Assembly (NCBI GenBank): GCA_964615415.1
Contig: CAZTNI010000001.1
Location: 112,746-176,745, forward strand
DNA from: an uncultured Candidatus Saccharibacteria bacterium
GTDB lineage: Bacteria > Patescibacteriota > Minisyncoccia > Phycocordibacterales > SBAW01
Reading direction: 5' to 3'
DNA length: 64,000 nucleotides
A program made the translations under genes and the position numbers. Below, piece by piece: positions 7,115-31,367 of the stretch. The notes under the pieces were generated by a model. It was not told where the DNA came from and ran no database searches. It saw nothing but the letters and a program-made list of their open reading frames with translations. Position 1 is the first letter of the stretch, and the number at the start of each line of letters is the position of its first letter.

Positions 7115-8026
7115 ATGGCTCAAAACCAGCTCCTTAACCTAAAGACCGAGTTTTTGGAGTATCTCGAGATCGAAAAAGGCCGCAGTATTAAGACGGTTGA
7201 GAATTATGACCGCTATATTACGCGGTTTATAGCTTTTGCGAAGATTTCTGCTCCAAAACATATAGAAGAGCGCACGGTACGCGAGTTCCGCCTCCACTTA
7301 AACCGTCAACCAGGCACCTCGAGCACGATGAAGCACAAGACGCAGAACTATTACATGATCTCGATCCGCGCGTTTTTAAAGTTTTTGCGCAAACGCGGCA
7401 TAGAATCCCTTAATCCTGAACGTATTGAGCTTGCAAAGGTGGGCGCACGCGACTTGGACCTTATTTCTTCGCAAGAACTCGATCGCCTGATGCAAGGACC
7501 AAAAGGCACTACGCTACGCGCCTTGCGCGACAAGGCAATAATGGAGCTGCTTTTCTCAACAGGTCTGCGCGTGTCTGAGCTTTGTTCGCTTAACCGCGAC
7601 TTAGACCTCTCGCGCGATGAATTTTCTATACGTGGTAAGGGTGAAAAGGTGCGGGTAGTGTTTTTGTCGACAGAGGCAAAGGCTGCAATTAAAGCCTACT
7701 TAGACAAACGCGGTGATGTTGATGAAGCGCTTTTTATACAAATGGGCAAAGCGTCTAAAAATGCGCATGAACTACGTCTTACTCCCCGCTCGGTGGAGCG
7801 TCTTATTAAACAGTATGCAATTAAAGCGGGCATTACGCGCAAAGTAACGCCGCACGTTATCCGCCACTCGTTTGCAACGGATCTTTTGGAAAACGGTGCC
7901 GACTTACGCTCCGTGCAAGCCTTGCTTGGCCACGCAAACATAGCGACAACACAGGTCTACACCCACATTACCGACAAACACCTGCGCGAAATCCATAAAA
8001 AATTCCACGGCCAGAGAAGGAAGTAA
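7115..8026 (+). CDS. xerC: Tyrosine recombinase XerC/XerD family
   Basis: 303 aa with the C-terminal catalytic motifs R...HxxR...Y (RHSFATDLLENGADLRSVQALLGHANIATTQVYTH). Confidence 0.9.
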   Translation: MAQNQLLNLKTEFLEYLEIEKGRSIKTVENYDRYITRFIAFAKISAPKHIEERTVREFRLHLNRQPGTSSTMKHKTQNYYMISIRAFLKFLRKRGIESLNPERIELAKVGARDLDLISSQELDRLMQGPKGTTLRALRDKAIMELLFSTGLRVSELCSLNRDLDLSRDEFSIRGKGEKVRVVFLSTEAKAAIKAYLDKRGDVDEALFIQMGKASKNAHELRLTPRSVERLIKQYAIKAGITRKVTPHVIRHSFATDLLENGADLRSVQALLGHANIATTQVYTHITDKHLREIHKKFHGQRRK

Positions 8027-22428: not shown

Positions 22429-22758
22429 CTAGTGGCCAAGCAGCAATGGTATCACAAACTCCCGCAGTACTCCGCCCGAAGGGTTGGCAACCTCAAAGTA
22501 AACTGAGACCAAGAATATAATCCCTGACGCAAGGAACAGATACATTGCGAGGAGCGGTGGGCCGACATGCGACACATCATTTCCAGCAAGTCGTGCCTTC
22601 TGGAGTTGCATGCTCTTCCGCATGATGAGGAAGCAAAAGCCAACGAAACAGAGTATTTCCGCAAGGAACAATACCAGGCTTACCCAAAAGACTGTGTTAG
22701 GAGACATCGCTATTCCTCCGGTTTGTGTGAATTCGTCCGCCGTGACTATACCACTCAA
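22429..22758 (-). CDS. Hypothetical membrane protein
   Basis: 109 aa (start may be the internal Met at 22707). Three hydrophobic helices. Confidence 0.4.
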   Translation of the reverse strand: MSGIVTADEFTQTGGIAMSPNTVFWVSLVLFLAEILCFVGFCFLIMRKSMQLQKARLAGNDVSHVGPPLLAMYLFLASGIIFLVSVYFEVANPSGGVLREFVIPLLLGH

Positions 22759-22773
22759 TGTATACTATGGCTA

Positions 22774-24444
22774 ATGCACGTTGATGAACGCGTCCTCGCG
22801 GATTTTCTTATTGATAGCGGACTTATCTCCCGCGGCACGCTTGCTGACGCGCGTTCGCGAGCAAGCGAACAAGGAGAAACGTTTTATGATGCGCTGTTAA
22901 GTGGTGGATTTGTTAGCGGCGACCACTTGCGTCGTGCGGCGGCGCACACACTTGGTGTGCCGTTTGTGATGCTTGAAGAAAGCGACATCGCACCGGAGGC
23001 ACTCGTGCTTATTCCGGAACCGCTTTCGCGTACGCACAACATAGTTGCATTTCGGGTGCACGACACAACTTTGGAAGTGGCGCTCCTGAACCTTGATGAT
23101 CTGAAATTACTCGAGTCGCTCCCTGTTGCAACAAGCTACAAACTCGCGCCGCGACTTACCACCCAACACTCTATAAAAAAGGCTCTGCTTGGCTATCAAA
23201 AGCACCTCAAGGAGAAGTTTGGCTCCTTTGCACAGCACGGCTTCCATGTTGTGGAAGGCCTTATAAAACACGCTATTTATAGTCGTGCAGGCGGCGTGCA
23301 TATAGAACCATCTACGACGGGCTTTCTTATCCGCTACCGCATCGGCGAGATGCTGCACGAAGCTATGCAGCTTCCTGAACACGTTGGCAAACTCCTGGTC
23401 GACCAACTAAAGGCGGCAGCAAAACTATTTCCCGTTGCAAGTGCGCAAGAAGGACACTTTACTATCGAACACGATAATGAAACACACACGGTGCACCTCT
23501 CCACTATGCCGATCCATAAAGGAGAGAAGTTAGTACTTCGTCTCGCAAAACAAGATGTGCATGCAAAAATAGGAAGCTTAGAGTCCCGAGGGTTTCATGG
23601 CGAAGCGCTTGAGGCGTTACACAAAGCCCTCGCGCTGCGTTCTGGACTCATTCTGGTTGCAAGCGAAGACGCAAAACACTTGCAGTCGCTGCTCTATACA
23701 CTCCTTGCTACTGCAGCACATCCGTATCGTGCCCTTGCGAGCGTGGAAGAGGGTGTGACGTTGCATTTGCCACATGTTGCACAGGGGAGCACTACCGTCT
23801 CGAAGCTTTCCTACGCAACACTCTTGCGCACGACGCTGAAACACGACCCGGATGTGGTTATGGTCAGTCGTGTGGATGAAACAGAGGTAGCGCTCCTGGT
23901 AAGCGAGGCTGCATCAAACGGCAAACTGATCATTGCGGGTATAGAAGCTCCGTCCGCGGGCAGGGCTATAGAAAAAATGCGCAACTTCGGTGTTTCACCC
24001 CTCCTTCTAGCGTCAGTAGTAAAAGTCGCAGTTGCTTCAACGATACTACGCAAGCTGTGTCCGCACTGTCGCAGTACGCACCGGCTCTCGCGCGCGGAAG
24101 GCGCCATTTTGGAAGAGCGGGCAGACTTCGGGCGCGTCTTTACTGCATTAAAAGAAGAGGGGGTGATAGACCGCGCCGCAAGCTGGAAAGAACTCGACTT
24201 TTACTGGCCGGAGGGCTGTAGCAAATGCGAGGGGGGATATATGGGCGGGGTAGGGGTAGGAGAGGCCTTGCCTATATCTCAGGTCCAAAAAGAGCTTATT
24301 TTACGAGAGATGTCGGGGGAAGACATGGCAAACCAGGCCCGGGTAGAGGGGGGTCTAAACCTCCCGGAAGACGCCCTTTTTAAGGCTGCGAGGGGGGATA
24401 CCTCTCTAGAAGAGGTGGTAGCCCTTGTGAAACGCCCGAACTAA
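22774..24444 (+). CDS. GspE/PilB-family (type II secretion / type IV pilus ATPase-like) protein with degenerate ATPase motifs
   Basis: N-terminal T2SSE_N/MshEN-like domain (LADFLIDSGLISRGTLADARSRASEQ...) and a C-terminal tetracysteine motif (CPHC...CSKC). The Walker A position reads GLILVASEDAKHLQS instead of GPTGSGKT, Walker B reads DPDVVMVSRVDE, and the His-box reads GKLIIAGIEAPSA. Confidence 0.75.
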   Translation: MHVDERVLADFLIDSGLISRGTLADARSRASEQGETFYDALLSGGFVSGDHLRRAAAHTLGVPFVMLEESDIAPEALVLIPEPLSRTHNIVAFRVHDTTLEVALLNLDDLKLLESLPVATSYKLAPRLTTQHSIKKALLGYQKHLKEKFGSFAQHGFHVVEGLIKHAIYSRAGGVHIEPSTTGFLIRYRIGEMLHEAMQLPEHVGKLLVDQLKAAAKLFPVASAQEGHFTIEHDNETHTVHLSTMPIHKGEKLVLRLAKQDVHAKIGSLESRGFHGEALEALHKALALRSGLILVASEDAKHLQSLLYTLLATAAHPYRALASVEEGVTLHLPHVAQGSTTVSKLSYATLLRTTLKHDPDVVMVSRVDETEVALLVSEAASNGKLIIAGIEAPSAGRAIEKMRNFGVSPLLLASVVKVAVASTILRKLCPHCRSTHRLSRAEGAILEERADFGRVFTALKEEGVIDRAASWKELDFYWPEGCSKCEGGYMGGVGVGEALPISQVQKELILREMSGEDMANQARVEGGLNLPEDALFKAARGDTSLEEVVALVKRPN

Positions 24445-24498
24445 CTAGGTTTTAAGCCAAATATCGGCTCTATAGAGCCATTTTTTATATGGAAATGC

Positions 24499-24527
24499 TT
24501 GACAAAAGCCTCCTTTGGGTGTATACT
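24499..24527 (+). promoter_or_regulatory. Consensus sigma70 promoter (TTGACA-17-TATACT)
   Basis: TTGACA 24499-24504, 17-nt spacer, TATACT 24522-24527. Confidence 0.55.
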
Positions 24528-24573
24528 TAATGGGTAATAGTGTTCCTTCTATATATGTAGCTTCCGGTAGTGC

Positions 24574-24602
24574 TTGACAAAATGCGCCACCTATGATACA
24601 AT
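24574..24602 (+). promoter_or_regulatory. Consensus sigma70 promoter with extended -10 (TTGACA-17-TGaTACAAT)
   Basis: TTGACA 24574-24579, 17-nt spacer, TGaTACAAT ending at 24602. Confidence 0.55.
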
Positions 24603-24731
24603 AGAAAGGTAACAGTGCAGTACGGGTTCGCTTGTACAGCAACAACTCAATAGCAAGACAATCTGAGGAGAGAGTCTTAAGGGAAGTCCAGTCTAGTAAT
24701 AGATAGGGCTCCTTAATCAATCAATTGCTTT

Positions 24732-24776
24732 AAACAAAGGCGATTGGCTCCTCAAACAAGGGCCAGTCGCCTTTGT
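24732..24776 (+). repeat. 16-bp stem hairpin
   Basis: aacaaaggcgattggc ... gccagtcgcctttgtt (one G-U pair), 13-nt loop. Confidence 0.7.
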
Positions 24777-24784
24777 TCGTTAGT

Positions 24785-24848
24785 AGGGACACTTCTGGAG
24801 GTAGGTCAAAAATTTTAAACCAAACCAGCCTGATCTCCAGAAGTGTCC
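24785..24848 (+). repeat. Perfect 14-bp stem hairpin with 34-nt A/T-rich loop
   Basis: ggacacttctggag ... ctccagaagtgtcc. Loop gtaggtcaaaaattttaaaccaaaccagcctgat. Confidence 0.7.
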
Positions 24849-25016
24849 TCGCTACGACAGTATGTGCAGTCGGTGAGTGGAGGATGGGTCTCTGACAACA
24901 AAATAGCGAATTAAGTTCAACAGGAGAAAAACTGTTGCGTAAGCAACGACTCCATATTGTTGTTCTTCTTCGCCGAGCTGACCTCACATAGGTCGGAGCG
25001 GCAAGAAGGATCGCAA

Positions 25017-25262
25017 ATGATCCTGAAGTTCTTTTTCAACCCGCCGCTCAATGCGGCAGAGGAGATTCAGATGAACAAGGCAGAGCGTGCAGTGAAGGTC
25101 CAGCTTGCGCTGGAGCTTCTCAAGAAGACTTCCATTCCGAAGGTCCGGAGAAATCCGGACCTAAACGCCTGGGTCAACACGGCTTCGCAGCTGCTCGGTC
25201 TCCGTGGCGACTCTGCCGCGGACTTCGAGAATGAGCTCGAAGTTGCGTACATTCGCAGCTAG
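25017..25262 (+). CDS. Hypothetical protein
   Basis: 81 aa from the ATG at 25017 (RBS aagga). The ORF track starts at TTG 24957. Confidence 0.3.
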   Translation: MILKFFFNPPLNAAEEIQMNKAERAVKVQLALELLKKTSIPKVRRNPDLNAWVNTASQLLGLRGDSAADFENELEVAYIRS

Positions 25263-25267
25263 GGCTC

Positions 25268-25316
25268 CCGGGCGACGCGAAAACTATCCCGCGTCGTCCA
25301 CCCATTCAAATTTTTG
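25268..25316 (+). terminator. Putative terminator hairpin
   Basis: gggcgacgcg-aaaactatcc-cgcgtcgtcc, then ...atttttgg. The T-run is displaced 8-9 nt, hence weak. Confidence 0.35.
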
Positions 25317-25382
25317 GACAATCGAAAATTTGAACGGGTCGCAATCAGGCGATTCCGAAACCCTCAAGGGGAGGTACGTGTC

Positions 25383-25793
25383 ATGGGCTATAACGAAACC
25401 GGACGCCTCTTCGAGAGGCGAGTAATCGGTGAGTGCACGGTGTCCTACCAAGGTCACCTGTGCTGGAAGGAAGCTGCCGCGCAGGTTCGCAAGAATCAGC
25501 CGAAGCAGCTTCCGAAGAATGCCACGGACCTTCTCGCGGAGGTTCGCCGGCAGACCAAGGCCGATGTGCAGTTCTACACTGCGATCGGCAGCGCCCTGGA
25601 TTACTTTCACGGCGTTGACGGATTCTTTGAGTTTGCGGGCTTTGTGGTGACGATCGACGTTACCAAGAACCCGCACAAGGATTGTGGGAAGGCCAACATG
25701 GTCGTCTGCGAAGACGATCTTGAAGATCTTCCTGCGCTTGCGGGCCGCGTGGTCCGCGAGTTTGTAACGCAAGCGAGGAGAGCAGGAATATAA
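25383..25793 (+). CDS. Hypothetical protein
   Basis: 136 aa from the ATG preceded by RBS aggggagg. GC3-rich codon usage. No family recognised. Confidence 0.45.
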   Translation: MGYNETGRLFERRVIGECTVSYQGHLCWKEAAAQVRKNQPKQLPKNATDLLAEVRRQTKADVQFYTAIGSALDYFHGVDGFFEFAGFVVTIDVTKNPHKDCGKANMVVCEDDLEDLPALAGRVVREFVTQARRAGI

Positions 25794-25795
25794 AA

Positions 25796-26047
25796 ATGAA
25801 AAACCGCAAACCTCGCGCGGCGTTTCTGTTTGAATGCCGACGATGCGGGGGGCAGTACCCCGTCTCCAAAAAGACGGCGGAGCAGTTCCTCTCCAAGGAA
25901 TTGCGAAAAAAGCTCAAACACGCTCTTGGTCATGAAGGAGCTGTGGGAGCCGTTCTAACGTTTAAGAACGGATGTCCCCAGTGCGTCCCGGAAAATCTTG
26001 AGGCAGTAGTTGAGCTTTCGGTCCTAGAGCCGAAACAAACGCACTAA
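25796..26047 (+). CDS. Small zinc-ribbon-like protein (CxxC...CxxC)
   Basis: 83 aa: FECRRCGG...NGCPQC. Confidence 0.4.
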   Translation: MKNRKPRAAFLFECRRCGGQYPVSKKTAEQFLSKELRKKLKHALGHEGAVGAVLTFKNGCPQCVPENLEAVVELSVLEPKQTH

Positions 26048-26395
26048 CGAGGCGAGCAGCAATGCTCGCCTCCTCTATAACCCAGCTGACACCCTGTTGG
26101 CTGGATTTCGAGGAGACTGCCAGACATGATCATGACCGAGGTTCTCATTCTGAACCCCCGCCGCTGCAAGTGCCGCTGGCACCGTTTCAAGACGGTGTAC
26201 TGCCACGAGGCGCCGGCGTTGGCCCAGCTCCTGCGGGAGATGGGCTACCAGGCCAGGCTTCGCCTCGCTTAGTACACAAATGGTTTGGATGGGACGAGCG
26301 CGTAATTGCTCGCCCCACCAATTAAGTTTTTTACACAGGTAGAAAATTTAATTGGTCATCATTCGATGGCTGATTGTTCAAACGGAGGAAGTGTA

Positions 26396-26797
26396 ATGAT
26401 CAAGTTTCTTGGAATTTTGATTCTCGCGCTCAGTGCCAACATGTTCTTCGTCCTCGTGTTCGACCCGCAGGGCATGTCGGCCGAGGGCTACATCCTCGGC
26501 TGGGGCATGACCCTGGCGGCGATTTTCGCTGGCCCGGCGACCTGGCGCATGGCTGGGGGACACGCTCCTGTAGAGGGGTGGGGAGTCGCGTTCCTCGCTA
26601 TCTCCCTCTGCGTCACCGCAATCAGTGTCTACCTGTTCGTGGATGTCGCGATGCTTGCGAGGACTGCCGAGACTGAGGCTTCCATCGTCCTCGGCGTGTT
26701 CGCCGCCATGCTGGCGGGCCTCGGACTGCTCATGGCCCATCTGGCTCAGAAGCTCATGGCGGACAGCATCAACGAGCCCGCCACTTCCAACACGTAA
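26396..26797 (+). CDS. Hypothetical multi-pass membrane protein
   Basis: 133 aa from the ATG at 26396 (RBS ggagg), four hydrophobic helices, strong GC3 bias. Confidence 0.5.
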   Translation: MIKFLGILILALSANMFFVLVFDPQGMSAEGYILGWGMTLAAIFAGPATWRMAGGHAPVEGWGVAFLAISLCVTAISVYLFVDVAMLARTAETEASIVLGVFAAMLAGLGLLMAHLAQKLMADSINEPATSNT

Positions 26798-26884
26798 CGG
26801 CAACAAGCCGTTCAAGAGGCAAGCGTTCGCGCTTGCCTCACTATCTAAGTTCTTATCTCGTCATCAAGACGGATGAGAGTTTAG

Positions 26885-26910
26885 ATAGGACCGCAAATCA
26901 GTTGTGGTCC
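26885..26910 (+). promoter_or_regulatory. Operator-like palindrome ATAGGACCGCAAATCAgTTGTGGTCC
   Basis: GGACC-N13-GGTCC dyad immediately upstream of the RBS/ATG of the 26935 gene. A near-identical copy lies at 27171-27196. Confidence 0.5.
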
Positions 26911-26934
26911 TGAAGTTCAACAAGGAGAGAAGCG

Positions 26935-27102
26935 ATGTGGATTCTTCTTACGCTCGCAGCTTGCGTGTTTGCCTACGCGGGCAAGCATCCGGATACCTTC
27001 GGACTGGCGCATGACGACTCTTTTCTGATGTATGTGATCGCAGTCGTTTTCGTCCTCTGGGCGATCATGGCTGCCATCACCGCTTCCGTACGGAAGTGGT
27101 GA
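26935..27102 (+). CDS. Small hydrophobic protein (55 aa, two predicted helices)
   Basis: MWILLTLAACVFAYAGKHPDTFGLAHDDSFLMYVIAVVFVLWAIMAAITASVRKW. RBS aaggagag 6 nt upstream. Below the ORF-track length cutoff. The opposite-strand ORF 26917-27123 is considered spurious. Confidence 0.4.
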   Translation: MWILLTLAACVFAYAGKHPDTFGLAHDDSFLMYVIAVVFVLWAIMAAITASVRKW

Positions 27103-27170
27103 CCAACCAAGGAGCAAGCGCAAATGCTTGCTCCACTATTTAAGTTTTTCAGTGAATGGAAAATTTAAAT

Positions 27171-27196
27171 AGGACCGCAAATCATTTGTGGTCCGA
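27171..27196 (+). promoter_or_regulatory. Operator-like palindrome ATAGGACCGCAAATCAtTTGTGGTCC (copy 2)
   Basis: Same dyad as 26885-26910, upstream of the 27219 gene. Confidence 0.5.
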
Positions 27197-27218
27197 TGGT
27201 TCAACCAAGGAGAGTGCA

Positions 27219-27560
27219 ATGACTGTTCTGAAGATTGTTGTTCTGTTCATCCTGCAGGCCGTCGCTTTTGTTGCGTATGTGGCGGCGGGGTTTGCTGCTG
27301 TGTTTCTCGTTCTGGCGGCTATCGGGTCTGTCGTTCATCTGATCGGCAACCAGGACCAGATCGACGAGCTGCAGGCATGGCTCGTGTTCTTCGCCTACAT
27401 CGGCGCGTTCGCGGTGATCGCGACCGTCGGGAACTTCCTCGACGCGCTGTTTTCCGCTTGCGATGCCGAGCGCAAGGCGATCATCGTTCGGTGGAAGTAC
27501 GACCGTCAGACGCGGCGGCTCTACCCGAACGCTGGCAAGCCGAGCCTCGACTTCCGCTAA
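27219..27560 (+). CDS. Hypothetical membrane protein
   Basis: 113 aa from the ATG at 27219 (RBS aaggagag), three hydrophobic helices. Confidence 0.5.
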   Translation: MTVLKIVVLFILQAVAFVAYVAAGFAAVFLVLAAIGSVVHLIGNQDQIDELQAWLVFFAYIGAFAVIATVGNFLDALFSACDAERKAIIVRWKYDRQTRRLYPNAGKPSLDFR

Positions 27561-27657
27561 CTACAAGCGGGAGTACAATTGGAGCAAGCTCAAGCAGCTT
27601 GCTCCCTCTACAAAGCTAATAAGCAATCCCGCTTACTAGCTTTCGGAGGGAACGAAG

Positions 27658-27825
27658 ATGATTCTCCAGTACCTTCAGAAGGGTCTTCGTCTGGCCAACG
27701 ACGCCTTCACGGCGTACACGGCCAAAGACCCGAATTACATCGCACTTAAAACTGCGGTGTTCACAGGCGTTCCCATTCTTTGGATGAAGATCCAGGAGTG
27801 GCGACGCAAACTCGCGGCGAAGTAA
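27658..27825 (+). CDS. Small hypothetical protein (55 aa)
   Basis: MILQYLQKGLRLANDAFTAYTAKDPNYIALKTAVFTGVPILWMKIQEWRRKLAAK. RBS ggaggg. Below the ORF-track cutoff. Confidence 0.35.
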   Translation: MILQYLQKGLRLANDAFTAYTAKDPNYIALKTAVFTGVPILWMKIQEWRRKLAAK

Positions 27826-27858
27826 TCTTACGATTCCTTCGCCGCTCCTTCTAAATAT

Positions 27859-28191
27859 TCAATCGATTCCTCTACAAGCGAAAGTTTGTACGGTTGAATG
27901 TTTAGAAGGGGCGATAATATCAACCCTATACAAGGCCGAGGGCGCACAGATTTTTGTTGCGTACAGCTGTTCTCCCGGTAGCACCAGGAGTTCTCGCATG
28001 TCTCGCGAGGTGAAATAACGAGCCCGGTGTTTTCCCCACCGGCCTACCTGCTCCCGCTTTGTGCGGTAAAGGGGTTCAAGAAAAAGGGAGGTGAAGACGA
28101 TGGTTGCGACCGCCTTTAGCGACAGCGACTCGTCTTGCACTAACACAATGTGTTTTGTAGAGCGCGCATTTTGAGCGCAGCTCCAAAGCAC
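27859..28191 (-). CDS. Hypothetical protein
   Basis: 110-aa ORF on the opposite strand inside the island, no recognisable family. Confidence 0.25.
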   Translation of the reverse strand: MLWSCAQNARSTKHIVLVQDESLSLKAVATIVFTSLFLEPLYRTKREQVGRWGKHRARYFTSRDMRELLVLPGEQLYATKICAPSALYRVDIIAPSKHSTVQTFACRGID

Positions 28192-28304
28192 TTTCCGACC
28201 GTTCGTATTGCATGAGTGGTCGGCTTTGTACTGTCTATACTCGAGTGGGCAATTTTTGTTCCCACTCGTTTTTCATGGGTCGCAGAAATGTTTAAACTGC
28301 GGCC

Positions 28305-28365
28305 CCGTTTCAAGATTTTTTCACAAGAAGAAATTTTGAAACGGGGATCGAAAATGTTCCCCTGC
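28305..28365 (+). promoter_or_regulatory. Conserved 5' leader, copy 1 (ccYtttcaagat..ttttgaaaSgggga-tcgaaaATGtt-cccc)
   Basis: About 85% identical to 29075-29135. A hairpin (gggga/tcccc) encloses the ATG of the uORF at 28354-28425 (MFPCVQVQVQPAPIDMGQHRRVE), whose stop overlaps the ATG at 28422. Confidence 0.5.
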
Positions 28366-28421
28366 GTGCAAGTTCAAGTTCAACCCGCTCCCATTGATAT
28401 GGGGCAACACAGGAGAGTGGA

Positions 28422-29033
28422 ATGATTCTCATCAAGGTGACCCCGAAGCAGGACGACATCTTCATCGTCGGCCCGCTCGGCCTCGCCGTGCACATGACCG
28501 CCATCACCCTCGAGGTGGAGGTGGTCATGGTGCCGACGCCGGCGACAGCGCTCGAGATGTACGAGCTGGCTATGCAGGTCAACGCGCTCGGCTTCGGCTG
28601 GGCCGGCGACCTGCTCCTTCGGGAGGCTATTCGCCTCGCGGAGAAGGAGCTCAACGAGTGGTTCACTGCTGCCGCTCTCGACATGGGCGACCTCGACGAG
28701 GCATTCCAGCTCCCGCCGGACCTCGAGGAGATTTACGGCCGCCCGCAGCCGCAGGTGTCGCGTCGTGCGACCAACCCCGGCTACGGCGGCTTCGCCGACA
28801 TGTTCGACGAGATCTTCGGTTCGGCCGATGCCTTCCGCTATCGCGGCGGCCTCGACGCCGGCCAGGATCCGTTCGTCGACGATCGGCCGTTCAACCATCG
28901 CGACTTCGGTCGGGGTCTCGGGCTCGATCACGAGGGTTCTCGGCACTTCGGCGCCGACCTCGCTGCGCGTCTCGCCAACCATGTCGGCTCGTTCGGCAAC
29001 GGCCACTATCGCGGCCACCAGCCGCATCGTTAG
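28422..29033 (+). CDS. Hypothetical protein: structured N-terminal ~100 aa plus G/R/D/F-rich low-complexity C-terminus
   Basis: 203 aa with extreme GC3 bias identifying the frame. The overlapping ORFs 28394-29197 (+) and 28380-29027 (-) are alternative-frame artefacts of the high-GC DNA. Confidence 0.5.
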   Translation: MILIKVTPKQDDIFIVGPLGLAVHMTAITLEVEVVMVPTPATALEMYELAMQVNALGFGWAGDLLLREAIRLAEKELNEWFTAAALDMGDLDEAFQLPPDLEEIYGRPQPQVSRRATNPGYGGFADMFDEIFGSADAFRYRGGLDAGQDPFVDDRPFNHRDFGRGLGLDHEGSRHFGADLAARLANHVGSFGNGHYRGHQPHR

Positions 29034-29074
29034 TACTGTCTACAACATTGGCGAACGCGCTTACGCGTTCGCCA

Positions 29075-29135
29075 CCCTTTCAAGATCTTTTTTCGAAAGA
29101 GATTTTGAAAGGGGATTCGAAAATGTTTCCCTGGA
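29075..29135 (+). promoter_or_regulatory. Conserved 5' leader, copy 2
   Basis: The uORF 29123-29197 (MFPWNVCNRPVGNGANKEEVHEQP) overlaps the downstream ATG at 29184, and the hairpin around its start codon is conserved. Confidence 0.5.
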
Positions 29136-29183
29136 ATGTGTGTAACCGCCCCGTCGGAAATGGGGCAAACAAGGAGGAAGTGC

Positions 29184-29342
29184 ATGAGCAACCGTGACAT
29201 CGAGCGCGTCGCCGCCGCCCGCGGCATCTCGAACAACGCGGCGAAGAAGATGATGCGGCGCCGCAAGGGCGGCACCAAGTCGCCCGCCGTCCCGGTCCGC
29301 GGGATGCCCGTTGCCGGCACCGGCAAGCCCAAGGGCGAATAG
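29184..29342 (+). CDS. Small basic protein (52 aa)
   Basis: MSNRDIERVAAARGISNNAAKKMMRRRKGGTKSPAVPVRGMPVAGTGKPKGE. RBS aaggagga 7 nt upstream. Confidence 0.35.
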   Translation: MSNRDIERVAAARGISNNAAKKMMRRRKGGTKSPAVPVRGMPVAGTGKPKGE

Positions 29343-29463
29343 TCTGATCTTTTCCTGGGCGGACGCAAATGTCCGCCCTCTACTTAAGTTCGCCACGGTG
29401 TATAGTGGTGGTGGACTTAACGGGAGTTCTAACCGCGGAGGAAATCCGCAGAAAGGAGGGAAG

Positions 29464-29658
29464 GTGAGTATTGAAAGGTACTTGTGGACCATCTGGGCGG
29501 TGATCGCTGTTGTGGCGGTTGCTGCTGCGGAGGGCCATTGGGTCATGGTGGCTGTCGTACTTCTGGTCACTGCGCTCATGGCTAAGGCCTTTGGGCCGTG
29601 GCCGCGTCCTTGGAAGCGGCATTCAGTTTCGGAGGTCCGGCATGGACCTGCGGAATGA
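29464..29658 (+). CDS. Small hydrophobic protein (GTG start)
   Basis: RBS aaaggaggg, then GTG. VSIERYLWTIWAVIAVVAVAAAEGHWVMVAVVLLVTALMAKAF... Confidence 0.3.
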   Translation: MSIERYLWTIWAVIAVVAVAAAEGHWVMVAVVLLVTALMAKAFGPWPRPWKRHSVSEVRHGPAE

Positions 29659-29782
29659 GCGGCCTATTCCCGAAGACGAGGAGAATCCGAACCGAGGCAT
29701 GTGGGTATTCGTACTCAGCATGATACTCGGGGTGGCGCTCGTACTTGGGCTCGCTACGTGGCGAGGTGTCCTTGTACTCTGA
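29642..29782 (+). CDS. Small hydrophobic protein (46 aa)
   Basis: MDLRNERPIPEDEENPNRGMWVFVLSMILGVALVLGLATWRGVLVL. RBS ggagg. Overlaps the previous gene by 17 nt. Confidence 0.3.
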   Translation: MDLRNERPIPEDEENPNRGMWVFVLSMILGVALVLGLATWRGVLVL

Positions 29783-29805
29783 TCGTCTGCTTCGGGAGCG
29801 AAAAC

Positions 29806-29838
29806 GGACGAACGCGAAATTATGTCTCGCGTTCGTCC
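29806..29838 (+). terminator. GC hairpin (perfect 12-bp stem) followed by 'ctctattcagtt'
   Basis: ggacgaacgcga-aattatgtc-tcgcgttcgtcc. Confidence 0.45.
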
Positions 29839-30026
29839 ACTCTATTCAGTTCGCCTTATATAAGGTGAACTGATCGAGTCTTTGTAAAACTGTTTCGTAC
29901 TCGGCGTGCCCAGTGTCATGGCAGCAAAAACTCTCTCCTCGAGAAATTTTTCTTCGCTTCTATGATGCTTGGCACGCCGAGTATGTATTTCGGTTTTACT
30001 GTGTAACTGAAACAAAGGAGACTTGA

Positions 30027-30524
30027 ATGTCTGCACCTTCAACACCTGCTCCTGCGAATGCTGGCATGTCGTGGAAGCTGAAGGTTTTGATCGCCGTCGC
30101 CGTCGCCGGGCTCATCGCTTGGTGGGGCATCGACAGCAACCTTCGCTTCGGATTGTGGGGATGGGCGGCTGGTGCCGCCTTCCTCATCACACTGTTCTTC
30201 CTGAGTGGTGTGATCGGTTGGACGATGAAGCACCCGGTCGCTACTCTCATCGGTCTCGTAGCCTTCCTCTACGGAGGCGTCTACCTTTGGCAGACGCTCT
30301 CGGAAGGTCGGCCGCCGTTCGGTAGCTGGATGACGCCCGAAACCCAGGCGAAGTTCGGCGAAACGGGCGAGCTGATGGATCCGTTCAACCTCGCTCTGAT
30401 CCTCGTCGCTGGCGCTGGCGGACTGTTCTTCTTGTGGAAGGCCTGGGAAAATGGCCGCAAGAATCGCGAAGAAGCCAAGAAGAAGAAGGCAGAAGCTGCC
30501 AAACACAAGGGCAGTGGCCACTAG
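30027..30524 (+). CDS. Hypothetical membrane protein with Lys-rich C-terminus
   Basis: 165 aa, four hydrophobic helices. RBS aaaggag. Confidence 0.5.
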   Translation: MSAPSTPAPANAGMSWKLKVLIAVAVAGLIAWWGIDSNLRFGLWGWAAGAAFLITLFFLSGVIGWTMKHPVATLIGLVAFLYGGVYLWQTLSEGRPPFGSWMTPETQAKFGETGELMDPFNLALILVAGAGGLFFLWKAWENGRKNREEAKKKKAEAAKHKGSGH

Positions 30525-30555
30525 TACCTTGCGGCAAGTGCCGCACAACAATATC

Positions 30556-30594
30556 GGGCCCCCGACGCTTCGCGCGTCGGGGGCCTTTTCTGTT
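30556..30594 (+). terminator. Intrinsic terminator (right edge of the high-GC block)
   Basis: gggcccccgacg-cttcgcg-cgtcgggggcc-ttttctgtt. Confidence 0.6.
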
Positions 30595-30599
30595 ATTAT

Positions 30600-31367
30600 G
30601 TGCACATGGCAAAAAAGCGTCTCGTGGTTGGTAACTGGAAAATGTATATTACTTCGCCTGAGGACGCATCAAAGTTTACAGTCGCGCTTCGCCGCAAGGT
30701 GCGCGGAGTCTCCGGTGTCGATGTATTTCTTGCTCCTCCGTTTACTATCCTTCCTAAAGTAGCGGACACACTCAGTAGTTCTCCTATACAGGTCGGCGCG
30801 CAAACTATCTCTGCTTTTATGGACGAAAAGCACACAGGAGATATTTCAGGAGTGATGCTTAAAAAAGCTGGTGCCTCGTTTGTTATTATTGGCCACTCCG
30901 AGCGCCGTTCACTCGGCGAAACGAACGAGCTCGTGCACGACCAAGTACTTCGCGCAGTTGAGTCGGGCCTTACGCCTATTCTTTGTATTGGCGAAAAAGA
31001 ACATGAAGAAGGCGGCGCACATTTTAATTTTATTGAACAGCAACTTTCGTCGGCTCTCAAAGACCTTCCACCAAAAGCTGTAAAGAAATTAATTATTGCC
31101 TACGAACCCGTGTGGGCGATAGGGAAAGCGGCAGCCGATGCTATGAAGCCGCAGGACCTTGAGCAGATGGTTATCTTCATTAAAAAAGTGCTCGCCGACT
31201 CGCTCGACCGCAAGGTGGCGCTCAGCGTGCCGATCCTGTACGGAGGTTCAGTAGAAGCAGAGAATGCGCCGAGTTTGTTGGAAACAGGGATCTCGGGCTT
31301 CCTTGTGGGGCGCGCAAGTACCGACGTTGATTCATTTACGCAGATAATCACTCTATGCAAAAAATAA
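30600..31367 (+). CDS. tpiA: Triosephosphate isomerase
   Basis: VVGNWKM, IIGHSERR, AYEPVWAIG motifs. Confidence 0.95.
   Translation: MHMAKKRLVVGNWKMYITSPEDASKFTVALRRKVRGVSGVDVFLAPPFTILPKVADTLSSSPIQVGAQTISAFMDEKHTGDISGVMLKKAGASFVIIGHSERRSLGETNELVHDQVLRAVESGLTPILCIGEKEHEEGGAHFNFIEQQLSSALKDLPPKAVKKLIIAYEPVWAIGKAAADAMKPQDLEQMVIFIKKVLADSLDRKVALSVPILYGGSVEAENAPSLLETGISGFLVGRASTDVDSFTQIITLCKK

Follow-up and report, generated by a model that had tools for sequence, protein, structure and literature searches.

A structured, probably polycistronic small-gene array with repeated hairpin modules between pilB and tpiA in an uncultured candidate phyla radiation bacterium

We analysed 64,000 nucleotides of contig CAZTNI010000001.1 (assembly GCA_964615415.1, positions 112,746 to 176,745, forward strand; hereafter the window, numbered from its first base), assigned to an uncultured Candidatus Saccharibacteria bacterium. 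The locus at positions 24445–30599 is real, reproducible and unusual. It is best regarded as a structured and, judged by its layout, polycistronic array of small genes, in which a pair of consensus promoters and a structured leader are followed by 13 small plus-strand genes and a single strong terminator. The array occupies about 6 kb, is flanked by a pilus ATPase gene (pilB) on the left and tpiA on the right, and sits in a background of housekeeping genes at about 50% GC. A conserved module of tandem hairpins is present at nine of its intergenic junctions, and a variant form at two further junctions. Our favoured reading, to which we give an even chance, is that this is a native operon array with fast turnover of its genes, in which the modules would work at the level of the mRNA, in its processing, its stabilisation or the control of its translation. 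The nearest genomes by TpiA are all uncultured Patescibacteria metagenome-assembled genomes (42–67% TpiA identity; labelled Paceibacterota, Adlerbacteria, Nomurabacteria or 'Saccharibacteria'), and the host is therefore a bacterium of the candidate phyla radiation (CPR); we describe its chromosome as Paceibacteria-like.

Folding of each intergenic region (IG) reveals a recurring order of hairpins. The first, H1, is GC-rich, begins 9–20 nt past the upstream stop codon and has no U-tract. The second, H2, is AU-rich, follows directly after H1, and has a stem of at least 18 bp with a conserved YAAG/UUUR core and often one mismatch; the third, H3, is a short GC hairpin (GGAYCGCAAAU...) that is clear in six of the nine modules. 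A Shine-Dalgarno sequence and start codon lie 40–76 nt after H2 in eight of the nine modules, and about 150 nt after it in module 9. For almost every gene, these folds bear out the original prediction, made from the letters alone, that the gene is followed by a GC-rich hairpin lacking a U-run and then by a recurring motif. The motif ('actaTYtaagtt' or 'ccctttcaagat') does recur, but it is the 5' arm of H2 and not a free-standing box. All 11 intergenic regions are more stable than dinucleotide shuffles (z = −3.7 to −8.1), and in the minimum-energy folds of IG1, IG3, IG7, IG10 and IG11 the ribosome-binding site is paired with the post-stop region or with a CCUC box. An intrinsic terminator at H1 is ruled out by the missing U-tract, and a promoter at H2 by the variable arm spacing, the absence of a −10 element and conserved wobbles that indicate pairing.

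Module 1 (25270–25341; this and all following modules on the plus strand) is composed of H1 at 25270–25299 and H2 at 25301–25338, with a hit at 25291–25341 to R1, a covariance model of the H2 consensus that we searched in the window and in fetched related loci (designated here by L-numbers). Module 2 (26291–26369) has H1 at 26291–26316, H2 at 26317–26356 and H3 at 26357–26369. Modules 3 (26816–26910; H1 26816–26839, H2 26841–26888, H3 26888–26910) and 4 (27111–27194; H1 27111–27134, H2 27136–27172, H3 27172–27194) are about 80% identical. The same degree of identity is seen from H2 up to the start codon between module 6 (28277–28404; H1 28277–28305, H2 28303–28346, H3 28343–28362, H4 28388–28404) and module 7 (29050–29166; H1 29050–29073, H2 29075–29113, H3 29112–29131, H4 29148–29166). 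Module 5 (27836–27913) has a long H2 with its stem at 27843–27913 and is an R1 hit from outside the R1 training set; module 8 (29357–29451) has H1 at 29357–29378, H2 at 29383–29420 and H3 at 29434–29451. In module 9 (29806–29983), H1 (29806–29838) and H2 (29846–29873) are followed by a long imperfect hairpin (29898–29983; 31-nt arms, 81% complementary) upstream of the last gene, g14, and this hairpin encloses the only promoter-like site inside the array (29939–29966, 9 of 12 matches). At the variant junction before gene g4 (26049–26104, plus strand), H1 (26049–26072) and a second hairpin (26082–26104) are accompanied by an outer helix that joins CCUC to the g4 Shine-Dalgarno sequence; at the one before g8 (27581–27650, plus strand), H1 (27581–27605) is followed by a second hairpin (27604–27650) that holds the g8 Shine-Dalgarno sequence within its 3' arm.

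The H2 helix is supported by covariation, first in an alignment of 16 copies and then in 28 model-aligned copies. In the latter, pairing is found in 90.7% of the cells of an 18-pair stem, and compensatory change, with both sides altered, is seen at 15 of the 18 pairs; none of 500 shuffles attained the observed values, and pairing collapses under register shift. Stems measure 18–25 bp, near two helical turns. Two positions are conserved wobbles, one G·U and the other U·G (each in 21 of 28 copies), which makes the structure strand-specific; a neighbouring position is mismatched in 10 of 28 copies. In 28 of 32 modules the sense fold is more stable than the antisense fold, the mean difference being −6 kcal/mol (Wilcoxon p = 2.6e-5), and plus-strand R1 scores are about 20 bits above minus-strand scores.

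Strong promoters are found at the left edge of the array only and a U-tract terminator at the right edge only, an arrangement that had been correctly anticipated. The tandem sigma-70 promoters (24499–24602, plus strand) match the consensus at 11 of 12 positions, the first (24499–24527) reading TTGACA-17-TATACT and the second (24574–24602) TTGACA-17-TACAAT with a TG. The first fits a promoter, 'CTTGACAAA...GGGTGTATAnT', that is conserved at the head of every related array; all arrays start 60–110 nt past the pilB stop codon with this common promoter (CTTGACAAA...GGGTGTATAAT, 11–12 of 12 matches). A structured leader RNA follows in the window (24610–25070, plus strand), with a conserved hairpin LH1 (24736–24774), a long hairpin LH2 (24957–25015), an inserted hairpin (24786–24848) and an H3-like hairpin (25007–25024). 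Six of the seven arrays have a homologous leader with two long G·U-containing hairpins (L003 7800–8360, L004 8350–8815, L007 6440–7140, L010 1850–2530 and L019 4770–5105, in addition to the window), L005 being the exception. The conserved part is about 200–450 nt long, its two long hairpins read AGGCGAUUGGG...CCCAGUCGCCU and UGUUGUUCCUCGU.GCCG...CGGUACGAGGGAUCGCA with some covariation, and it is without match in Rfam; it could be an independent non-coding RNA (ncRNA) or the 5' platform of the array. The right edge is formed by a small hairpin (30530–30545) and an intrinsic terminator with a 13-bp GC stem and T-run (30556–30597; together 30530–30597, plus strand). The tpiA start lies only about 10 nt past the end of this terminator (stretch 30556–30606), with no space for a tpiA promoter, and so expression of tpiA and pgk would need read-through or a promoter inside g14. 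In relatives it is the H2–H3 module, not a terminator, that precedes tpiA.

A search of Rfam 15 at the gathering threshold found only tRNAs in the window and six related loci, a permissive scan of 24400–30700 gave only chance-level hits (E ≥ 0.17), and our literature searches found no description of such arrays. We consider the multi-hairpin module to be previously undescribed, and the H1–H2–H3 module and the leader to be two candidate structured RNAs absent from Rfam.

Within the window, the nine R1 hits all lie on the plus strand and between 25291 and 29881; the remaining 58 kb has none. Extending the search for the junction motif beyond the window, as had originally been suggested, located it at the pilB–tpiA locus of five relatives, where copies lie in the pilB–tpiA gap and in the sense orientation (five in L003, three in L004, one in L005, five in L007 and six in L010). 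Three more sense copies are present in L019, a small-gene island on a contig that ends within the island. There are no copies in L006, L008 and L009, where pilB and tpiA are adjacent or nearly so, none in L011–L013, where the gap contains pilC and pseudopilin genes, and none in the fraction of each genome covered by the flanks of L003–L013 beyond the gap. All 32 detected H2 copies are inside arrays, and the length of the array at this locus ranges from zero to nine or more units. The L005 array is composed of the promoter, a 32-aa open reading frame (ORF), one module and tpiA, and nothing more; there, and in L003, L004 and L007, tpiA has the last module as its own 5' leader.

Most modules are followed by the Shine-Dalgarno sequence and ATG of a small ORF, and several of the ORFs read encode membrane proteins. 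The translation-initiation regions are alike even between genomes, though the ORFs are unrelated: tblastn of the window's island proteins against all fetched loci matched g2 and g3 only. H2 copies are closer to each other within one genome than across genomes, and modules stand back to back without an ORF both in L003 (8722/8817) and in the window (27836 to 28295). The common promoter, leader, modules and pilB–tpiA position indicate a platform that is native to the clade and tied to the region upstream of tpiA; its gene content, judged from these loci, turns over completely.

The modules are more diverse than R1 captures, as indicated by subtypes in L014, L019 and two junctions of the window. 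A second subtype, in which H1 is followed by 'AUCUUAUCUGCSGCAGG...CCGCAGURGGAU', is found at L014 7875–7960 and 8747–8830 and at L019 6835–6905, and in L014, a CPR genome of 58% GC, it borders relatives of the window's adjacent genes g2 and g3; the IG3 and IG7 junctions of the window (CCUCUAYAA...) are a further variant. H1–H2 modules with an AU-rich H2 (CCUUAUUUUAAAUCA...UGAUUUAAAAUAAGG) are also present at L161 7062–7155 and 11432–11483, as well as in L162. Those in L161 border a distant g2 homologue (37% identity) from another CPR lineage, and this module type may be widespread in CPR. Pilus genes occupy the locus in more distant relatives: L011 (1751–9361), L012 (4689–10001) and L013 (2271–10001) carry pilC-like and large pseudopilin-like genes of a type IV pilus operon, genes that are absent from the pilB–tpiA position in the window's clade, where there are small-gene arrays or nothing instead. 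The pilC and pseudopilin genes prompted us to consider the island proteins as type IV pilins, a reading that we rejected because none has a G/FTLIE-type N-terminus.

These features are consistent with an array laid out as a single transcription unit, in which the modules would be portable expression units in the sense mRNA. A function in sense mRNA is suggested by the layout of promoter, leader, genes and terminator, the lack of U-tracts after H1, the sense-specific structure, a placement that is constant with respect to stop and start codons, the conservation through H3 to the translation-initiation region, and the fact that relatives have the element in their tpiA leader. H2 would most likely be an endonucleolytic processing site of the RNase III type, or else a factor-binding site. 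RNase III recognises irregular helices of about two turns, the early mRNAs of phage T7 being the textbook case, and H2 provides a double-stranded stem of about that length on the sense strand. After cleavage, H1 would stay on the upstream message as a 3'-protective hairpin and H3 on the downstream message as a 5'-stabiliser; at several junctions, cleavage or upstream translation could free a sequestered ribosome-binding site and so activate translation. Since the same H2–H3 element is the 5' leader of tpiA in relatives, the array probably expanded as that leader was reused or duplicated around new small ORFs.

A close parallel in layout is the set of RNase III sites between T7 early genes (R0.3, R0.5, R1.1 and others), along with similar intercistronic processing hairpins. 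There, too, small genes are expressed polycistronically from strong promoters with irregular intercistronic hairpins of about 20 bp, flanking hairpins could shield the new ends, and some junctions sequester the downstream ribosome-binding site. Unlike the T7 sites, this array is chromosomal, has three tandem hairpins with a consensus of their own and shares no sequence similarity with them, and cleavage is here something that we infer. The REP/BIME, ERIC and Neisseria Correia/NEMIS repeats are likewise short imperfect palindromes just past stop codons that fold in mRNA, and the Neisseria intergenic palindromic repeats are cut by RNase III. Those families are dispersed genome-wide in tens to hundreds of copies, whereas here every detected copy lies within an array, and the annotated flanks of the island revealed neither a RAYT nor a transposase.

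Several considerations weigh against the processing reading. Co-transcription and cleavage are deduced from the layout and folds, as would be any effect on stability or translation, and there is no strict sequence consensus for RNase III. Since the copies compared are related and in part paralogous, the covariation counts overstate independence. On the bottom DNA strand the conserved G·U pairs would equally be a pair of conserved C·A mismatches, which leaves room for H2 to act as single-stranded DNA. Processing does not need the back-to-back modules without ORFs noted above, and an RNA model leaves unexplained how unrelated ORFs with a high GC content at third codon positions (GC3) came to lie between conserved modules.

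The 13 genes (g1–g8 and g10–g14, all on the plus strand) encode proteins of 46–203 aa, in good agreement with the dozen or so short genes originally predicted, and six are clearly membrane proteins with transmembrane (TM) segments. Eleven of the 13 have no detectable relatives, the exceptions being g2 and g3; g10 and g14 were searched as cassette genes against 5.8 billion protein clusters, where they returned only the query, and the other genes were compared with the fetched loci by tblastn. No island protein has a significant match in Pfam, PHROGs, PADLOC or NCBIfam, but the earlier statement that none belongs to a recognised family is wrong for g2 and g3, which have hundreds of uncharacterised homologues.

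The 136-aa product of g2 (25383–25793) belongs to a conserved uncharacterised CPR family, with 296 homologues at E ≤ 1e-3 among cluster representatives, all of them uncharacterised. Its AlphaFold2 (AF2) model has a mean predicted local distance difference test score (pLDDT) of 94.6, and its best structural matches, at weak Z scores of 5–5.6, are PD-(D/E)xK endonuclease folds (3hrl, NgoMIV, BsaWI, Bax1, I-Ssp6803I, Hjc and viral VRR-NUC). The resemblance to the restriction-endonuclease-like fold of that superfamily is tentative; conserved acidic residues and lysines are on helix 1 and the central strands, and invariant residues include E11, D73, H76, D79, D92, T94, N96, K99 and K103. We use PD-(D/E)xK-like as a provisional description of g2; PADLOC gave a sub-threshold hit to a type II restriction endonuclease model (E = 0.004), a g2 profile found no match among PDB sequences, and neither g2 nor g3 has a sequence match in Pfam, NCBIfam or PDB. 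g3 (25796–26047, 83 aa, CxxC...CxxC) is zinc-ribbon-like. We examined g2–g3 loci in other CPR genomes and metagenomes (L014–L019 and L143–L169); of the 33 fetched loci that carry g2, 23 have a g3 relative immediately downstream of it. The pair occurs at varying loci, often with its own consensus promoter: L015, L151 and L147 have such a promoter, an ordinary U-tract terminator and no H2, whereas the pair is bordered by H1–H2 modules in L019 and L161 and by the variant module in L014. Because its loci vary and some lack H2, g2–g3 looks like a widespread two-gene unit that was taken into arrays, and not like the engine of the array.

Among the remaining genes, g1 (25071–25262, 63 aa) encodes a soluble protein without homologue among the fetched loci, g4 (26126–26272, 48 aa) a basic protein with three cysteines and a GC3 of 0.90, and g5 (26396–26797, 133 aa) a protein with at least three TM segments, again without homologue among the fetched loci. 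They are followed by g6 (26935–27102, 55 aa, a membrane protein), g7 (27219–27560, 113 aa, two to three TM segments) and g8 (27658–27825, 55 aa). g10 (28422–29033, 203 aa) is acidic with a GC3 of 0.85, and its single-sequence AF2 model is uninformative (pLDDT 52); g11 (29184–29342, 52 aa) is very basic (+10) with a GC3 of 0.94. The small membrane proteins g12 (29464–29658, 64 aa, GTG start) and g13 (29642–29782, 46 aa) are encoded by overlapping genes, and g14 (30027–30524, 165 aa) has about four TM segments and a Lys-rich tail. Public gene calls give g1 81 aa from a start at 25017 and g7 134 aa from a start at 27156, and in place of g4 they have an overlapping 87-aa ORF (26062–26325) that traverses two hairpins; our starts at 25071, 26126 and 27219 differ from these because they fit the ribosome-binding sites and GC3. 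Between modules 5 and 6 lies an ORF-less spacer of about 360 nt (27914–28276) with a host-like GC content of about 0.50–0.53. Its only ORF is a doubtful GTG-start frame of 110 aa on the minus strand (27859–28191), and no credible plus-strand gene is present in the 596-nt stretch 27826–28421; the spacer may be an empty or decayed cassette, or an ncRNA.

To the left of the array, clpP, tig, ppa and nusA lie on the minus strand, followed by the PilB/GspE-type ATPase gene (22567–24444, plus strand), whose product is 556 or 625 aa in public calls, depending on the source. To the right are, in order, tpiA, pgk, a HIT gene, recJ, rnhA, comEC and sod.

The alternative that survives best, and that we still hold to be unlikely, is a DNA-level system resembling an integron or a cluster of attC sites lacking an integron integrase (CALIN). 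H2, and LH2 as an attI-like site, would recombine as single-stranded DNA, and a recombinase or nuclease would insert and excise small-ORF cassettes behind the fixed promoter. The reading has its attractions. As in integrons and CALINs, short ORFs of mostly unknown function stand in tandem and in a single orientation, each forming a unit with an imperfect palindrome whose outer arms are conserved and whose centre varies in length and sequence. A strong, fixed promoter lies upstream, some units have no ORF, and junctions are kept while the gene content of related genomes differs wholly. The range of array lengths at one locus and the greater similarity of H2 copies within than between genomes fit as well, the strand asymmetry could equally signal a functional bottom strand, and a PD-(D/E)xK-like g2 is present within the window and L019 arrays, with module-like hairpins around g2 in L161 and, as a variant, in L014. 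Against this, there is no integron integrase (IntI) and no attI. The sole tyrosine recombinase of the 64 kb is Xer-type and 17 kb away (7115–8026, 303 aa); it scores best against XerD/XerC, passes only the archaeal XerA cut-off, and reaches 131 bits against TIGR02249, below the cut-off of 265. The annotated genes around the island, over about 7 kb on its upstream side and about 10 kb on its downstream side, include no recombinase. A CALIN lacks IntI by definition, and so the absence of IntI alone does not exclude one.

The structure of H2 is a further difference from attC sites. Its arms read YAAG...UUUR and not R''/R', and the helix is nearly continuous, with no extrahelical bases and no unpaired spacer at its centre, and irregular only at the two wobble positions and one frequent mismatch; a regex search of both strands for inverted R''/R' pairs (RYYYAAC...GTTRRRY) 40–130 nt apart found none in the island and four non-complementary chance pairs elsewhere in the window. 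Conservation of the module reaches the ribosome-binding site and start codon through H3, a hairpin of the 5' untranslated region (UTR), which suits a 5' UTR better than a crossover site; the element also leads tpiA in relatives, and the strand bias suits sense RNA. Moreover, the 10 kb on either side of the arrays in L003, L004, L007 and L010 contain no g2, and H2 is missing from most g2 loci. Exact look-ups of TpiA, g2 and g10 found population contigs with one and the same array and no strain-level variants (an apparent disagreement between NCBI and Logan came down to differently called start codons), and the relatives are too distant (TpiA ≤67%) to map breakpoints. The cassette array was the closest of the guesses in the original prediction, in that the unit of an ORF and a conserved structured junction is real, has statistical support and recurs at this locus around unrelated ORFs. 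The stronger form of this idea, which we think improbable, is that the platform is a previously unknown means of cassette capture in CPR bacteria, analogous to an integron but with neither IntI nor attC, in which H2 and LH2 would recombine as single-stranded DNA and small genes were possibly imported through the competence or pilus machinery and stacked behind the promoter beside tpiA. Cassette capture, if true, would account for both the total gene turnover and the GC3-rich composition.

Similarly improbable in our view is an RNA-level operator, at which a trans-acting protein or RNA bound to H2 would co-regulate translation or antitermination of the array genes and tpiA with no cleavage. The H2 stem is conserved in sequence beyond what pairing needs (the YAAG/UUUR core, the two G·U wobbles and the frequent C·C or C·A mismatch), as is typical of protein-recognised hairpins, and both its constant placement relative to the ribosome-binding site and its presence in the tpiA leader of relatives would fit an operator. 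No candidate binding protein is linked to the arrays, however, and the flanking H1 and H3 are better explained as end protection; sequence does not separate an operator from the processing model.

The composition of the island raises the question of a foreign origin. GC content per kb is 0.53–0.59 over 25–31 kb and 0.42–0.54 elsewhere in the window, so that the predicted anomaly is present but its stated extent of 58–68% throughout is too high; values of 0.64–0.68 are reached only in 300-nt windows over g5 and g10–g11. The 13 island ORFs have GC3 values of 0.56–0.94 (mean about 0.72), compared with 0.50±0.05 and a maximum of 0.61 for 47 long ORFs outside the island, and the claim that almost all codons end in G or C applies to g4, g10 and g11 only. 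The proposed tetranucleotide profile likewise singles out 26–31 kb, over which three 3-kb windows (z = 3.2–3.5) are the strongest outliers of the 64 kb. The pattern of GC1, GC2 and GC3 (content at first, second and third codon positions; 0.73, 0.41 and 0.85 in g10) resembles that of genuine genes in a genome with a GC content near 65%, and no donor for the GC3-rich genes was found in the databases searched. Arrays of relatives are not raised in GC over their own genomes, which indicates that the GC3 excess belongs to the genes of this array and not to the platform. The description as a foreign island thus holds for the unique, GC3-rich gene content but not for the promoter, leader, modules and pilB–tpiA position.

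We see little prospect for the view that the island is the remnant of a horizontally acquired mobile element (a prophage, satellite or integrative element) with accessory, exclusion or toxin-immunity genes. The GC3 and tetranucleotide deviation, the lack of homologues of g10 and g14, the many small membrane proteins and the occurrence of g2–g3 at different loci in other CPR genomes could all be read in this way. There is, as originally noted, no integrase or tRNA at the edges (the nearest tRNAs are at 11–14 kb of the window), nor are there att-like direct repeats, and relatives share the promoter, leader and modules at the same locus in arrays that are not GC-rich. The suggestion of a phage exclusion or toxin/immunity module found no backing in significant PHROG or PADLOC hits. 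blastn of the whole island gave no match in 50,697 phage and 72,556 plasmid records, and IMG/VR contains neither g2 relatives nor H2. In viral contigs a loose H2 pattern gave only chance single hits, and a tighter one found conserved phage coding sequence and not a hairpin; R1 scored none of these loci.

We think it very unlikely that H1–H2–H3 processes the polycistronic transcript autonomously, as a new self-cleaving ribozyme or a catalytic RNA of another kind. There are three stems with conserved junction nucleotides (..YCGCC-NCC.. and GGG), the module is repeated between small ORFs as in some bacterial ribozyme classes, and Rfam has no match, but the stems are in tandem and not around a conserved multi-helix core, the conserved nucleotides are mostly within a regular helix, and there is no likeness to known ribozyme families at E ≤ 5. 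A chimera or mis-join in the assembly, which the step in composition at both island edges had made worth checking, is effectively refuted, since Logan assemblies of three runs match the window with 100% identity through both edges (SRR14271372 over 17356–39033, SRR14271370 over 26577–29342 and SRR14271376 over 23854–25827), and flanking synteny and the promoter/module platform are kept in relatives.

CPR bacteria, or Patescibacteria, are mostly uncultured episymbionts with tiny genomes. How they make and express lineage-specific small membrane proteins, which are likely players in host contact, is to our knowledge essentially unknown. The locus described here is a conserved platform that holds from zero to at least nine small genes without detectable relatives, and the R1 model offers a concrete, testable way to look for further arrays of this kind in CPR genomes. 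Should the modules be recombination sites, they would represent a new cassette-capture mechanism outside the integron paradigm; if they process or insulate the messages, as in the reading that we favour, they would be a compact natural toolkit by which a single promoter could serve many small genes.

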